Origin: an uncultured Thermoplasmata archaeon | Lineage (GTDB): Archaea; Thermoplasmatota; Thermoplasmata; UBA10834 | Direction of reading: 5' to 3' | DNA length: 64,000 nt | Assembly: GCA_963719945.1 (NCBI GenBank) | Contig: CAVRDX010000001.1 | Span: forward strand, 256,001-320,000 | The notes under the pieces: model-generated | The model's input: the letters and a program-made list of their open reading frames with translations, nothing else | Database searches by the model: none | What the model was told of the DNA's origin: nothing | Translations under genes and position numbers: made by a program | Part shown: piece by piece, positions 46,374 through 51,679 of the stretch | Layout of the letters: each line of letters opens with the position of its first letter | How positions within the stretch are numbered: the first letter of the stretch is position 1

Positions 46374-46475
46374 TCACTTATCGCTGAAATCGTCCCAGAT
46401 GCATTCTGGTGCATCATCAAAGAGTTTCAGATCGTCTATTGCAGGTATGAAATCCTGCGATTTCGAGTCTTCCAT
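46374..46475 (-). CDS. Putative small acidic protein (33 aa)
   Basis: Not in ORF track: MEDSKSQDFIPAIDDLKLFDDAPECIWDDFSDK; AAGGAGG SD 10 nt before ATG; T6 run just after the stop. Confidence 0.5.
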   Translation of the reverse strand: MEDSKSQDFIPAIDDLKLFDDAPECIWDDFSDK

Positions 46476-46807: not shown

Positions 46808-47350
46808 ATGAATGATGATGACCTCATGAAAGTCAAGATCTGCTTCATTGGAGACGCAGGCGTAGGTAAGACTAGCCTCATCAAGAGATTTGTTCTCGAC
46901 GTCTTCGACGACAGGTATATCGCAACCATCGGGACCAAGGTTACGAAGAAAATTGTTGAGGTCAGTGACCAGGGGACCAATGTCAAGGTCATGATGCTCA
47001 TTTGGGATATTATGGGTCAGAAAGGGTTCCGCGAACTCCTGCGCGAAGCATACTTTTTCGGAGCGCACGGGGCAATCGCAGTATGTGACCTGACGAACAA
47101 GGAGACTCTCGAAGAACTCAGGTATTGGATAAAGGCTCTGACCGATGTCGCGGGTGATGTGCCAATAGTGTTCGCGGGAAACAAGGCAGATCTCGAGAAT
47201 GAGAGGGTAATCAAGGACGAGGAACTCCAGGAATTGGCCTCGAAATACAAGGCCAAATCGTTCATGACCAGTGCGAAGACTGGCCAGGGAGTCGAGGATG
47301 TCTTCAAGGCCCTCGGTCTCGCAGTCTCAGAGAAGATGGGCTCACGGTAG
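46808..47350 (+). CDS. Rab-like small GTPase (Ras superfamily)
   Basis: G1 GDAGVGKT, G2 YIATIG, G3 WDIMGQ, G4 NKAD, G5 TSAK; GGAGG SD; no C-terminal Cys prenylation motif. Confidence 0.95.
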   Translation: MNDDDLMKVKICFIGDAGVGKTSLIKRFVLDVFDDRYIATIGTKVTKKIVEVSDQGTNVKVMMLIWDIMGQKGFRELLREAYFFGAHGAIAVCDLTNKETLEELRYWIKALTDVAGDVPIVFAGNKADLENERVIKDEELQELASKYKAKSFMTSAKTGQGVEDVFKALGLAVSEKMGSR

Positions 47351-47452
47351 TAGCCAGTGGTCCATTACCAACCCTGATAACGAATTAATAATCCTTATAT
47401 GCCCAGCATCGGCTATGAAATCCTCCAGAGAGTCAAGGGGCGGCTTAAGTTC

Positions 47453-50400
47453 ATGAAGGAAGTTCCCGTAGGAGGTTGCAGTCGTCATGCTCGAATTCTG
47501 AGCGGCTCACTTGCAGTCCTTCTCGCAATATTGATGATATCGGGGCCGGTCCTTCTGATGATAGGGGATGACCCCGTCAACGCCTCTGCGGATTCCCTGA
47601 CTTCCTGGGACCATTTGCTGCGCATGCATGAGGGAAGCCCTGTCTCCTCAGGAGATTATGATTGGCTGAACTCTTCCGCCCCTCAGAATCCAAGCGACCT
47701 CGATTACGATTCTGATGGATTGCTCGGAATCACGATCAAGAAGAACCTCCCATCTCAGCGTTGGAGGCATTTCTGGGTGCTCTCCCCTCCGGTGAACTCC
47801 GACGTTAGCATCCAAGGCGACATCTCGGCTCACATCTGGGCGGCCTCCAGGGACAACGAATCGGGGTCGATGATGACCATAACGTTGTCCGACATGGCTC
47901 CGTCCACCTTCTATAGCCCAAGCTCGTGGGCGAGTGTGGGAAGTGCCACGATTGCGCTGACGGGTCCTGTATACTCGTCATGGAAGGCATATGATCTGAA
48001 CATCCCCGGGATAGATTATGTGCTGGCAGATGGCCACTCTCTCGTCTTGACCATCATGAGAGGGGATTCGATCAATGACGGCTTGATGATCCTCTATGAT
48101 AGCAATGCATTCGATTCATACCTGATTGTCCCAACCAGGGACTTCATAAGCGTCGACGATGTCTGGACGGAAGATGAATCTGGAACATCCAGGACCGTGT
48201 TCGCCGACACTGAGGAGATTGTGGTATATGCGAACGTGTCGAACCCGTTCGGAGCATATGATATCCGCGAGTCCTATCTGGAAGTTGCATATTCCAACAA
48301 TGGGACAGTGTGCATCCCGTCGACTCCTCTGACCCTGGTTTCGGCGGACTCGTCCTCAAATCCGTCCTGGAAGCTGTTCTCTACTGCTCTCGAGCATTTG
48401 TGCAACGGAACCTTCAATCTGACGGTCTATGGCTATGATGCATTGGGCACTCCGACCTGGTTGACATCGTCCGTATCGATAGTCACCGCAGATCATTTCG
48501 AAGTCTTAACTCCATCCAATATCATCGCTGGCCAGGAATTCGAGATGACTATCACCGCATTGGACGCGGCTGGAGAGATCGTCCCGAATTGGAGAGGCAC
48601 TGTCGAGGTCGAGTCGGTCTTTTCAGAGACGATGACCCCCTCTTCTGGATCGCTGAATGTCACAACGGTAGAATTCGAGGGAACGGAGAACGGTGTCGTC
48701 ACGGTCGAGAACCAATCATACGACGCGGGCGAAGAGACGATAATCCTTATCGCGTATTCGAACTCGCATTTCGGCTACAGCGTCGAGATCTATGTGTGGA
48801 GCGGTCCCGTCAGTACGATATCCATTGACCCTGCGGGACCTATAACCTCGCTTCTATCCGGATCCATCGTATCTTTCACTGTGGTCGGACTGGATCATCT
48901 GGGGAACGAGAATACCTCCTGGTCGCCAGCATGGTCGGTGTTTGGCAGTGTCGGGACGATATCCGGTTCAGGAATGACGGTCTCCTTCATCGCATTGAAT
49001 GATGGTGTTGGTGGCATAAACTGCACTGATCCTGCGAGCGGCATATATGTGAACGTGAATATCACGGTCGTCGCCGGAAGTCTAGCCAGGATTGTATTGT
49101 CGCCGAGCGGCCCACTATCTATTCCCGAAGGGGTGAGCCAAGTTATTGTCGCGACGGGTTACGATTCATATGACAACATCGTAAGCATGTCCAGCGCTAC
49201 TTGGAGCACTAACACTTCTGGCAAGATCGTCGGTAGCGGTTCCACAGTCACCTACACTGCAGGGTACATCCCCGAATCAGGGGCGATTGAGGTCATGTAT
49301 GGTTCTGTAAGCGCATCGATCAGTGTTACTGTCATTAATGCACTCAATGGTCCACGACTCAGCACCATACCGACGCAGATCGCTACGGAAGATAGTTCAT
49401 GGAGCTTGAGTCTCACTTCATATTGGCATCACACCAATGGCACAGCGAACCTGAAGTGGTTTGCTGAGAATGTCGACACTTCACTCTACTTGGTCACGCA
49501 TGATCCATCTTCAGAGGCGATTGTAAAGTTCTATACGCAACCTGACAAGTTCGGCTCAGACACATTCAGACTCTGGGTAAGGGATCCCGACGGGTTCTCA
49601 ACCTATCAAGATATAGTTGTGAGTATCCAGCCAGTTAATGACAGGCCACATTTCGTCCACAGCCCACCGACCGAGATATATGTCAAGTTCTCAACTCCAT
49701 ATTCCTTCGACTACAGCTACTACGTGTCCGATGTTGACAACGCGAAGAGCAATCTGCTGATGTTCGCCGAATCTTCGAACTACGGCGATATCCTTTTCGA
49801 CCACCTGATATCAACATTCCTCTTCCTGGAGAAGGATGGGACCAACAGCTACTTCGAGATCATCACAATCACTCTGACTGATGCTGTCAATGCAGAATCA
49901 TCAGATTCTACAAATTCCGATTATCTGAATGCCGTGATATGGGTGACGGATGATACGCCACCGTCCCTGAACAACACGTTGCCGGATCAGGAGTTGAACG
50001 AGGGTGACCTAAATGTCTATGCGTTCGACCTGGACGACTTCTTCTTCGACCAGGATCCCGAAGACTATCTCGTCTATCAGTATGGTTTCGACAATATAGT
50101 GATATCCATCGATCAGGAGACCCACGAAGTCTACATGTCCGCACCGTTTGAATGGTCTGGAATCACTGAGGGCACCCTCACGGCCATGGACCCGACAGGC
50201 GCTTTCAAGACAGACATAGTCACGGTGACGGTCTTCGCTGTGAACGATCCTCCGTCGATCTCTCCGATCAATGATATTCATGTGCGCTATGATGTGGTAA
50301 CCAAGATCGATGCGAGCATGTATGTAGCCGATCCAGATCATACTCTGGATGAGTTGGTATTCTCATTTGACAGTCCATATGCAAGCTATTCTGATGGAAT

Positions 50401-51679
50401 GATTGAACTGCTCTTCCCTGCGAACCTCAGCGGTGGAGCGTTCACGAGCCCCTATATCGTCAAAGTCGGCATGACCGTCGCTGACCCTGAGGACGCGTCT
50501 GCAATACTTAGCTTCAGTGTGGTAGTGAGTGACAACTACGCTCCCGCAGTCACATACCCGATTCCATATCCAACACTTATCTCGTTCCCGGAGGATACCT
50601 ATCTCAATGGCTCGCTGAACTTGAGTCTGCTATTCAACGATGTTGATGACTCTAGCTTGTCCTACAGGATAGTCTATGGGAGCGCGTCTCCGAACATACA
50701 TGCGGTGATATATCCCGATGGTGTGGTCAACTTCACAGCCGCAGTCAACTGGTCTGGCATCGAAACTCTTGGGTTCGTGGCAACGGATTCTCACGGTGCC
50801 TGGGCTTCATGGATGGTCACGATCTCGGTGACGCCAGTGAATGATGCACCAATCATCTTGCCGATCAAAGATTTCGTGTTCAAGGGTTGGCCGAGGAACT
50901 CTCATTACATCATTTCCCAGTTCTTCATCGACAGCGAGACTCCGTATAGCTCGCTGGTGATATCAGCAATCCCTGATCAGTATGTGAGCGTAGTCGGCAG
51001 TTACCTCTATGTCAGCCTGCCAGATGGTGTGGATGTCATCACCGTCACTCTTCAGGCGACAGATGGTGACGGCGCGACGTCCAATACGATCAGCTTCAGG
51101 GTCGGCGTGACAAAGACTATGGCTGAGACGATTGGATGGCCGTACACTTTCCCCTTGGTGTTGCTTGCTGCAGGAATCGCGAGCTATTTCGCTGCCATGA
51201 GGATGCCTAGGCCCTACTCCCTTGAGAACCTCTTCCTCATCCACAACGACGGCAGGCTTGTTGCCCATGTCACTGAGGAAGAGAACACGAACATGGACAA
51301 TGACGTGGTGAGCGCCATGTTCACTGCCGTCCAGGAATTCGTGCGTGATTCTTTCCAGCAAGGGGAGGTCGGATTGAAGAAGCTCGAGATTGGCGACAAG
51401 AGCGTCATCATCGAGAAGGGTAAGTCTGTCTACATCGCCATGATCTATTCGGGATGGCCTCGAAAAGAGGTTTTCACATCTCTCGCGATGCTGCTCCGAG
51501 ACATCGAGGAAAGATATGCTGATAGGATTATTCGCTGGAACGGGACTATGAAGTCGCTCAAGGGCGTGCAGGAGATGCTCCAGATATACATGTCAAATGA
51601 GTTCAAGCCCGGTTCCTGGCAGGTCGAGGAAGAGATCGGAGAAGAGGAATGGGTCGACATCCTCGACAAGGAATCCTGA
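47453..51679 (+). CDS. Large single-pass cell-surface protein: Ig-like and cadherin-like repeats, TM helix, cytoplasmic longin-like domain
   Basis: N-terminal signal; Ig-like beta repeats; cadherin-type linkers PVNDRP, AVNDPP, PVNDAP with DPD/DVD motifs; TM ~51131-51204; tail LENLFLIHNDGRLVAH...VSAMFTAVQEFVRDSF...LEIGDKSVIIEKGKSVYIAMIY. Confidence 0.85.
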   Translation: MKEVPVGGCSRHARILSGSLAVLLAILMISGPVLLMIGDDPVNASADSLTSWDHLLRMHEGSPVSSGDYDWLNSSAPQNPSDLDYDSDGLLGITIKKNLPSQRWRHFWVLSPPVNSDVSIQGDISAHIWAASRDNESGSMMTITLSDMAPSTFYSPSSWASVGSATIALTGPVYSSWKAYDLNIPGIDYVLADGHSLVLTIMRGDSINDGLMILYDSNAFDSYLIVPTRDFISVDDVWTEDESGTSRTVFADTEEIVVYANVSNPFGAYDIRESYLEVAYSNNGTVCIPSTPLTLVSADSSSNPSWKLFSTALEHLCNGTFNLTVYGYDALGTPTWLTSSVSIVTADHFEVLTPSNIIAGQEFEMTITALDAAGEIVPNWRGTVEVESVFSETMTPSSGSLNVTTVEFEGTENGVVTVENQSYDAGEETIILIAYSNSHFGYSVEIYVWSGPVSTISIDPAGPITSLLSGSIVSFTVVGLDHLGNENTSWSPAWSVFGSVGTISGSGMTVSFIALNDGVGGINCTDPASGIYVNVNITVVAGSLARIVLSPSGPLSIPEGVSQVIVATGYDSYDNIVSMSSATWSTNTSGKIVGSGSTVTYTAGYIPESGAIEVMYGSVSASISVTVINALNGPRLSTIPTQIATEDSSWSLSLTSYWHHTNGTANLKWFAENVDTSLYLVTHDPSSEAIVKFYTQPDKFGSDTFRLWVRDPDGFSTYQDIVVSIQPVNDRPHFVHSPPTEIYVKFSTPYSFDYSYYVSDVDNAKSNLLMFAESSNYGDILFDHLISTFLFLEKDGTNSYFEIITITLTDAVNAESSDSTNSDYLNAVIWVTDDTPPSLNNTLPDQELNEGDLNVYAFDLDDFFFDQDPEDYLVYQYGFDNIVISIDQETHEVYMSAPFEWSGITEGTLTAMDPTGAFKTDIVTVTVFAVNDPPSISPINDIHVRYDVVTKIDASMYVADPDHTLDELVFSFDSPYASYSDGMIELLFPANLSGGAFTSPYIVKVGMTVADPEDASAILSFSVVVSDNYAPAVTYPIPYPTLISFPEDTYLNGSLNLSLLFNDVDDSSLSYRIVYGSASPNIHAVIYPDGVVNFTAAVNWSGIETLGFVATDSHGAWASWMVTISVTPVNDAPIILPIKDFVFKGWPRNSHYIISQFFIDSETPYSSLVISAIPDQYVSVVGSYLYVSLPDGVDVITVTLQATDGDGATSNTISFRVGVTKTMAETIGWPYTFPLVLLAAGIASYFAAMRMPRPYSLENLFLIHNDGRLVAHVTEEENTNMDNDVVSAMFTAVQEFVRDSFQQGEVGLKKLEIGDKSVIIEKGKSVYIAMIYSGWPRKEVFTSLAMLLRDIEERYADRIIRWNGTMKSLKGVQEMLQIYMSNEFKPGSWQVEEEIGEEEWVDILDKES

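Follow-up and report, generated by a model that had tools for sequence, protein, structure and literature searches.

A Rab-like GTPase gene paired with the gene of a longin-tailed surface protein in an uncultured Thermoplasmata archaeon: a candidate membrane-tethered longin-GTPase module

We analysed a stretch of 64,000 nucleotides (hereafter the window, G000:C1:256001-320000) from an uncultured archaeon whose nearest named relatives are uncultured Thermoplasmata metagenome-assembled genomes (MAGs). The source genome comprises 1.78 Mb on 4 contigs and is 87% complete. Our subject is a pair of neighbouring genes on the forward strand of the window. The first encodes a Rab-like small GTPase, and the second, located directly downstream, encodes a giant surface protein with a single transmembrane (TM) helix and a cytoplasmic tail that is predicted to adopt a longin-type fold.

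The GTPase gene (46808..47350, + strand; the open reading frame (ORF) is open from 46805) encodes a protein of 180 amino acids (aa), identified by a Pfam Ras match (PF00071; 131 bits at a cut-off of 21.6, E 3e-38), the G1-G5 motifs and matches in the PDB. All five motifs are intact, namely GDAGVGKTS (G1), YIATIGTKV (switch I), WDIMGQ (G3, with the catalytic Gln present), NKAD (G4) and SAK (G5). The protein therefore combines the G1-G5 motifs with a Pfam Ras/Roc/Arf profile, the two features that delimit the Ras superfamily. Its best 60 PDB sequence matches are all Rab/Ypt/Sec4 proteins (E 1e-29 to 3e-25), and homologues among the matches listed share 81-99% identity. The RabF-like stretches TIGTKV, IWDIMGQ, YFFGA and AVCDLT agree only approximately with the RabF consensus. 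The C-terminus reads ...SEKMGSR, with zero Cys within the final 80 residues. Neither the C-terminal prenylatable Cys motif of eukaryotic Rabs nor an amphipathic N-terminus was found in the GTPase sequence. As read from the sequence, these properties support a Rab-like GTPase that lacks a lipid-anchor signal, in agreement with the first-pass annotation of this DNA, which had described a 180-aa GTPase with intact G1-G5 motifs, Rab-like features and no prenylation Cys. The 510-bp gap 5' of the gene contains a 33-aa acidic ORF (…LKLFDD…IWDDFSDK; window 46374-46475, - strand), and look-alikes (…LKLFDD…DF.[DE]K, followed by a stop) are found 5' of the GTPase in ~9 relatives, with weak and patchy matches (E 0.02-0.8). 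We rejected this ORF as a constituent of a module with the GTPase on account of these weak, patchy matches and an internal stop in the closest relatives.

The longest ORF of the surface-protein gene spans 47399-51679 (+ strand, 1426 aa), and residue numbers given below follow this ORF. The true start is probably the ATG at 47453, resulting in a gene at 47453..51679, a protein of 1408 aa and a gap of 102 bp to the GTPase gene. Three observations argue for this start: the closest homologues are 1408 aa long, the gaps between orthologous GTPase and surface-protein genes measure ~95-109 bp, and the ATG at 47399 falls within a conserved TATA-like box. This box is part of a conserved intergenic element (47375..47416, + strand) that consists of TGATAAC (47375-47381), a spacer, the TATA-like CTTATAT (47394-47400), GCCCAGCA and GGCTAT. 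In an alignment of 22 orthologous spacers the blocks TGATAAC, GCTTATAA, GCCCAGCA and GGCTAT are nearly invariant and the adjoining bases variable. Judged by this pattern, the element is probably an own promoter or operator of the surface-protein gene. The first-pass annotation had cautioned that a CTTATAT box at ~47394 might provide such a promoter; the caveat holds, as the box is retained in the orthologous spacers. A near-palindrome, ATAAGCC...GGCTAT, overlaps the TATA-like box and could constitute an operator. In Sysuiplasmatales, by contrast, the GTPase and surface-protein genes abut or overlap.

The encoded surface protein begins with a hydrophobic segment (residues 33-56; 47495..47566, + strand) that is preceded by basic residues and predicted, from a Kyte-Doolittle scan, to act as signal peptide or signal anchor. 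A single TM helix (residues 1249-1267; 51143..51199, + strand) follows from the hydrophobicity scan and is kept in orthologues. The layout of signal segment, one TM helix and cytoplasmic tail that was proposed at first reading is thereby confirmed. Between both segments lies the ectodomain (47567..51142, + strand), delineated by its composition, its N-x-S/T sequons, a Big_9 match and its VNDxP linkers. It comprises ~1,190 aa, is acidic and is rich in Ser, Thr and Asp; 20 sequons are located outside, as compared to 1 in the tail. Three VNDxP linkers are found at residues 746, 948 and 1147, and an Ig/cadherin-like repeat at residues 1070-1153. The earlier assignment of Ig-like and cadherin-type repeats is upheld in part: the Big_9 match (28.2 bits) exceeds its cut-off of 23.6, while Cadherin_5 (15.2 bits, cut-off 26.5) and the NCBIfam tandem-95 repeat (61.7 bits, cut-off 90) remain below theirs. 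We found neither a PDB sequence relative of the ectodomain nor tandem repeats at the DNA level within it.

The protein ends in a cytoplasmic tail of 160 aa, whose first strand begins 7 residues past the TM helix. It contains a longin-fold domain (residues 1274-1398; 51218..51592, + strand), which was delimited by an AlphaFold2 model, structure searches and conservation. The model, built on an alignment of 94 diverse relatives (alignment A1), has a pLDDT of 88.3 and a pTM of 0.80, and consists of the elements E8-16, E21-26, H35-52, E60-65, E68-74, E78-85, H90-112 and H118-132. A model from the single sequence (pLDDT 48.8) was suggestive in its topology yet unusable and was replaced by the alignment-based one. 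The resulting order beta-beta-alpha-beta-beta-beta-alpha-alpha, which the first-pass annotation had deduced from the hydrophobic pattern of the tail and which the model bears out, is the longin order as PMC10933270 defines it, in which two helices close the domain and none precedes the first strand. When the predicted model was used as query in a VIA-align search of 48,161 chains, longins ranked first, with ~25 entries at Z 13.8 to 10 (117-139 residues aligned, rmsd 2.4-4.1). The top matches are AP-3 sigma (Z 13.8), VAMP7 (12.9) and Sec22 (12.7, rmsd 2.4 over 119 residues), further longin matches include TRAPP subunits, Ykt6, a Lokiarchaeota longin (Z 10.7) and Mon1-Ccz1 (~10), and roadblock/MglB/LAMTOR domains rank below the longins (Z 8-9.5). 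A Foldseek search, which had been suggested with the initial longin proposal, likewise returned longin or roadblock proteins without exception at E <= 1e-3. The model thus supports a longin-type fold of the tail.

Sequence profiles, on the other hand, do not recognize the domain. None of the Pfam and NCBIfam models, including the longin models PF13774 and PF19036, matched the tail, and just two Pfam families recur below threshold in the 94 relatives, namely Robl_LC7 (7 members) and Fuz_longin_1 (4 members; best E 0.006). When PDB sequences were searched with a profile of the tail family, unrelated proteins came up (best E 0.069), and an ESM-Atlas feature search with the tail yielded solely unnamed clusters with scores up to 0.87, below the trust level. 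Two more specific identities were considered and rejected. A roadblock/LC7 (MglB-like) domain disagrees with the missing helix before beta1, the missing PF03259 match and the sub-threshold level of the matches in 7 of 94 relatives. Tri-longin RabGEFs (Mon1-Ccz1, Fuz-Inturned, HPS1-HPS4) have three longin domains per subunit and work as heterodimers, whereas the surface protein has one longin domain and nothing else in the cytoplasm. Across 116 orthologues, conservation along the protein is highest in the tail (column conservation 0.84-0.92, as compared to ~0.6 in the ectodomain). The same alignment delimits a C-terminal acidic peptide with invariant W1407 and W1418 (…PGxW…EEE…EEWVDIL…; 51611..51676, + strand), which is specific to the family of the source genome: it is missing from the Sysuiplasmatales orthologues and altered in family f2.

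The two genes are strictly linked. The GTPase gene lies directly upstream of the surface-protein gene and in the same orientation in each of 13 orthologous loci (two families, one order) and in all 24 named MAG loci with sufficient upstream sequence, a set that partly overlaps with the former; four further named MAG loci end at contig ends and are outside this count. In family f8, which belongs to a second order (Sysuiplasmatales) and includes the genus Candidatus Sysuiplasma, both genes are adjacent in identical order in all four fetched loci, with gaps of 18-76 bp or an overlap, and every sampled genome has a single tail-domain match as well as a single Ras-like GTPase match. The neighbourhood survey thus agrees with the earlier expectation that the pair is co-located in related genomes. 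Across families f1, f2 and f8, the GTPase and the surface-protein gene are the sole common genes out of those between 40 and 58 kb of the window, and the flanks differ. The conserved unit is therefore the gene pair and not a wider syntenic block.

A similar linkage recurs elsewhere in the source genome, where the tail domain is found in three proteins and Ras-like GTPases number five. A second pair (G000:C1:134856-136105, + strand) consists of a 217-aa protein with TM helix and tail (L004:4856-5509) and, after 33 bp, a paralogous GTPase (L004:5542-6105), that is, in reversed gene order. This second pair is present in genomes G040 and G144 as well. We note that the frame of the second GTPase is broken after ...TSARTGEN and that the sequence resumes in another frame with VEAAFDALAQM... 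plus ~100 aa of helical extension, which resembles the extension of a 302-aa paralogue at L007:4671-5579. In G040 and G144 the orthologous frames stay open over 280-282 aa; the break is either a frameshift or an assembly error. The third tail-domain protein (L005:3327-8556, + strand; G000:C3:279327-284556) carries FG-GAP and PKD domains. The N-terminal third of its gene appears broken into a 176-aa FG-GAP ORF, ~1.3 kb of short ORFs in mixed frames and a frame of 1140 aa, with orthologues of ~1,700 aa, and the gene is possibly a pseudogene or affected by an assembly error.

The tail domain belongs to a large family. With E <= 1e-3 as limit, an exhaustive HMMER search finds 3,652 representative clusters, and with E <= 1e-10 it finds 1,316. 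The domain is usually found at the C-terminus of proteins of 1,000-2,400 aa, as well as in small proteins of 135-260 aa. Some proteins of ~2,200-2,400 aa (P0128, P0136, P0139 and others) contain two or three copies ~500 residues apart, which implies multi-pass topologies or several cytoplasmic loops. The domain is joined to AAA_16 and TPR repeats in a STAND-like arrangement in P0264, and fused to DUF835 in P0178 and P0242. Considering five single-contig genomes, a Ras-family GTPase is encoded within 3 kb of 14 of 38 tail-domain genes, in all 14 cases on the same strand (random placement: mean 2.6, maximum 9, 2000 trials). Taken overall, the tail-domain family is enriched in the vicinity of genes for Ras-like GTPases. 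Ectodomains and gene orders vary among these 14 GTPase-linked genes; in family f4 the giant ectodomains of the linked proteins are unrelated, and the GTPase genes form tandem arrays of up to six. One such array, at G059:C1:3131858-3153101, consists of six tandem GTPase genes (~290 aa each) directly 3' of a gene for a tail-bearing protein of 5,179 aa, and the genomes of family f4 (3-5 Mb) have 28-35 Ras-family matches and 10-21 tail domains. Both families also co-occur: out of 151 genomes of the class, 102 contain the tail domain and 105 a Ras-like GTPase (E <= 1e-20). Families f6, f19 and f20 are devoid of both; family f11 lacks the tail domain and has a Ras-like GTPase in 1 of 15 genomes.

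A physical association of both proteins was addressed by complex prediction for two tails and one GTPase, with an own alignment for each, as proposed along with the initial hypothesis. The score is 0.51, whereas none of 3 controls exceeds 0.01; at least 67% of contacts are common to the runs, and the partner pLDDT is at least 76. Of 80 solved complexes 58 reach the mark, as do 2 of 110 mismatched pairs; those that pass with a score of 0.60 or under comprise 7 of the 80 solved complexes and both of the passing mismatches. The pass may also reflect a likeness to solved longin-GTPase complexes. The prediction lends weak support to direct binding between tail and GTPase, and we count it as a small increment; no interface was reported to set against the switch I/II contact that the first-pass annotation anticipated.

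Dimers of longin or roadblock domains are recurrent platforms for small GTPases, as exemplified by MglB-MglA, Mon1-Ccz1-Rab7, TRAPP-Rab1, SRX-SRbeta and FLCN/GATOR1-Rag. On the basis of the architecture and fold of the domains, the conservation of the adjacency and the joint occurrence of both families documented here, we consider it reasonably likely that the two genes constitute a module in which the membrane-tethered longin tail docks and regulates a soluble Rab-like GTPase without lipid anchor. The tail of a giant, glycosylated, adhesin-like surface protein would serve as the docking and regulatory platform for the GTPase, which would thereby act at the membrane, at the site of the surface protein, in a nucleotide-dependent manner. 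Within such a module the tail may be a guanine nucleotide exchange factor (GEF), a GTPase-activating protein (GAP) or a dock for the GTP state, and information may flow outside-in, with the surface protein as receptor, or inside-out, with the GTPase steering the placement, clustering or turnover of the adhesin. A tethered longin platform also fits a route that was proposed for archaeal Rab-like proteins, including those of Thermoplasmatales and Aciduliprofundum, which lack prenylation sites and for which protein-protein contacts were suggested as the way to the membrane (Surkont and Pereira-Leal, PMC4915359).

Several observations weigh against a docking module. No GTPase gene is found near the third tail protein of the source genome, and 24 of the 38 tail-domain genes have none within 3 kb, hence the tail domain need not act with an adjacent GTPase in every case. 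The structural matches of the tail are headed by adaptor and SNARE longins, and longins of this kind (SNAREs, adaptor sigma and mu subunits) have roles that are independent of GTPases. The complex score is graded weak, without a reported interface. The conserved TATA-like box of the surface-protein gene implies that co-transcription of the pair is not assured in the family of the source genome. The matching phyletic patterns of tail and GTPase may in part rest on few loss events, since related genomes are not independent, and the evidence as a whole consists of genes and models of an uncultured MAG.

Among the more specific alternatives, the one that survives best places the GTPase in command: its cycle would set the location, clustering or shedding of the adhesin-like protein, with the tail as effector or GAP. 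MglA and MglB of Myxococcus position adhesion and motility complexes, and MglB-type roadblocks, the nearest prokaryotic relatives of the fold, act as GAPs and positioning factors. Such a role is compatible with the retained catalytic Gln of the GTPase, and up to six tandem GTPase genes after the gene of one giant tail protein in other Thermoplasmata would fit several regulators per surface structure. However, no conserved cytoskeletal or motor genes were found in the neighbourhoods in f1, f2 and f8; we regard this alternative as possible but rather unlikely. Somewhat less plausible still is an outside-in receptor, in which binding of a ligand or contact to the ectodomain would alter the dimerisation of the tail, which would in turn drive GDP/GTP exchange on the GTPase for signalling to effectors. 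The proposal draws on the conserved adjacency of both genes, on the layout of a single-pass receptor (ectodomain, TM helix, conserved cytoplasmic domain) and on the fact that longins of the Mon1/Fuz type are GEFs, with Fuz_longin_1 being one of the two Pfam families matched below threshold by relatives of the tail. Sequence and model data do not separate GEF from GAP or effector activity, however, and known longin GEFs are heterodimers of multi-longin proteins, as opposed to the single domain found here. Moreover, no conserved effector gene was found in the neighbourhoods of f1, f2 and f8, and the lack of PDB sequence relatives leaves the ectodomain without a relative to suggest ligand binding. 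The weakest alternative dispenses with direct coupling, such that the tail would serve homodimerisation, anchoring to cytoskeleton or S-layer, or sorting, and the GTPase would be a conserved neighbour; it can draw on the majority of family members without adjacent GTPase, the adaptor and SNARE longins at the head of the structure list, the promoter-like box and the weak complex score, but is quite improbable given that the pair persists where every flanking gene has changed, recurs as a paralogous pair in reversed order and with unrelated ectodomains in family f4, and that both families match in presence and absence.

The proposed longin-GTPase module can be compared to several known systems. 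Eukaryotic and Asgard longin platforms (Mon1-Ccz1/Rab7, TRAPP Bet5-Trs23/Rab1, DENN, FLCN-FNIP, GATOR1/Rag, SRX/SRbeta and the Lokiarchaeota longin 8yqg) share the fold and the order of elements as well as a Rab-like partner GTPase of the Ras superfamily. They differ from the module in that here a single longin, without above-threshold match to a Pfam longin model, is joined through one TM helix to a giant adhesin-like ectodomain in a Thermoplasmata host. In the Asgard archaeon MK-D1, GTPase genes are generally found outside of operons with longin or roadblock genes (PMC10933270), whereas the adjacency of tail and GTPase in the Thermoplasmata module is strict.

In MglA-MglB of bacteria and Euryarchaeota, too, the gene of a prokaryotic small GTPase is paired with that of a roadblock/longin superfamily member, and MglB matches the tail with Z 8.3-8.6. 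The tail, however, lacks the N-terminal roadblock helix, has two C-terminal helices and is integral to the membrane, whereas MglB is soluble. The GTPase is Rab-like and has the G3 Asp (DxxGQ motif) that is missing in MglA (PMC4316618). We therefore rejected an assignment to the MglA/MglB family, based on the G3 Asp and the helix order of the tail. No Robl_LC7 gene is adjacent to the GTPase; two soluble Robl_LC7 proteins are encoded elsewhere in the source genome. In the Group 1 Rup neighbourhoods of bacteria (Wuichet and Sogaard-Andersen 2014, PMC4316618), a Rup GTPase is accompanied by a membrane protein in which a conserved domain without a name is combined with a TM helix and OmpA. Compared by description, both systems have a predicted, uncharacterised membrane protein, with a cytoplasmic domain that has no name, beside a Ras-like GTPase. 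Among the structural neighbours of the tail in the ESM-Atlas are OmpA-family proteins of bacteria, with TM-scores of 0.70-0.72 and an rmsd of 2.4-2.7 over ~132 residues. Group 1 Rup GTPases lack the G3 glutamine (PMC4316618), which is present in the GTPase of the module, and the extracytoplasmic parts (Ig/cadherin-like repeats as opposed to OmpA) are unrelated. No OmpA, coiled-coil or GGDEF/HK genes are conserved near the module in the neighbourhoods examined. With the G3 Gln present and no OmpA gene nearby, the features given for Group 1 Rup systems do not apply to the module. The ArvA/ArvB/ArvC vesiculation system of Haloferax (PMC10927574) is similar in that its small GTPase is archaeal, is encoded in a conserved gene cluster and has a function related to membranes. 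Its GTPase ArvA has DUF2073 (ArvB) and DUF2072 (ArvC) proteins as partners, encoded downstream (PMC10927574). We rejected an ArvA-type vesiculation system, as the downstream gene in the window encodes the longin-tailed surface protein and the neighbours have no DUF2073 or DUF2072 Pfam matches. A description of a TM-anchored longin family in Thermoplasmata was not found in our literature searches. We rate the module as a variant of the longin/roadblock-GTPase partnership that is distinct in its architecture, its taxon and the missing Pfam match.

Further genes of the source genome encode related domains. Another paralogue of the Rab-like GTPase (L008:4704-5216, + strand) overlaps by 4 bp with the gene of a 310-aa V4R and DUF835 protein (L008:5213-6145, + strand; both within G000:C3:98704-100145); V4R is said to have common ancestry with TRAPPC3 (PMC10933270). 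A 136-aa V4R protein (L055:1059-1469, + strand) is encoded 1 bp ahead of a 115-aa Roadblock/LC7 protein (L055:1471-1818, + strand; G000:C3, ~79.7-80.5 kb), and a second stand-alone Robl_LC7 gene is located at L056:1426-1785 (- strand). Hence, longin-like, roadblock and V4R domains are all present as building blocks in the source genome, alongside five Rab-like GTPases.

For Thermoplasmata, Rab-like GTPases that lack a lipid anchor were described in 2016 (PMC4915359), at that time with no partner, location or function assigned. The module described here names a specific, conserved and membrane-integral candidate partner for such GTPases and is a candidate answer to the question how they reach the membrane. 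If true, it would also be one of few prokaryotic examples in which a single-pass surface protein connects to a small GTPase instead of a kinase or sigma factor. The tail domain itself represents a large family with a predicted longin fold, beyond Asgard archaea and eukaryotes, for which no Pfam or NCBIfam model exists. The family thereby bears on the origin of the longin-GTPase partnership, either as an invention of eukaryotes and Asgard archaea or as an older, prokaryotic one. That an adhesion receptor in non-Asgard Thermoplasmata signals directly via a tethered longin to a Rab-like GTPase, as the first-pass annotation had envisaged, is in our judgement unlikely. If it were true, the wiring of receptor, longin and GTPase, possibly common to bacterial Rup1 systems, would be an ancient prokaryotic signalling principle, one that predates, and may have seeded, the eukaryotic use of longins as regulators of Rab, Arf and Rag GTPases.

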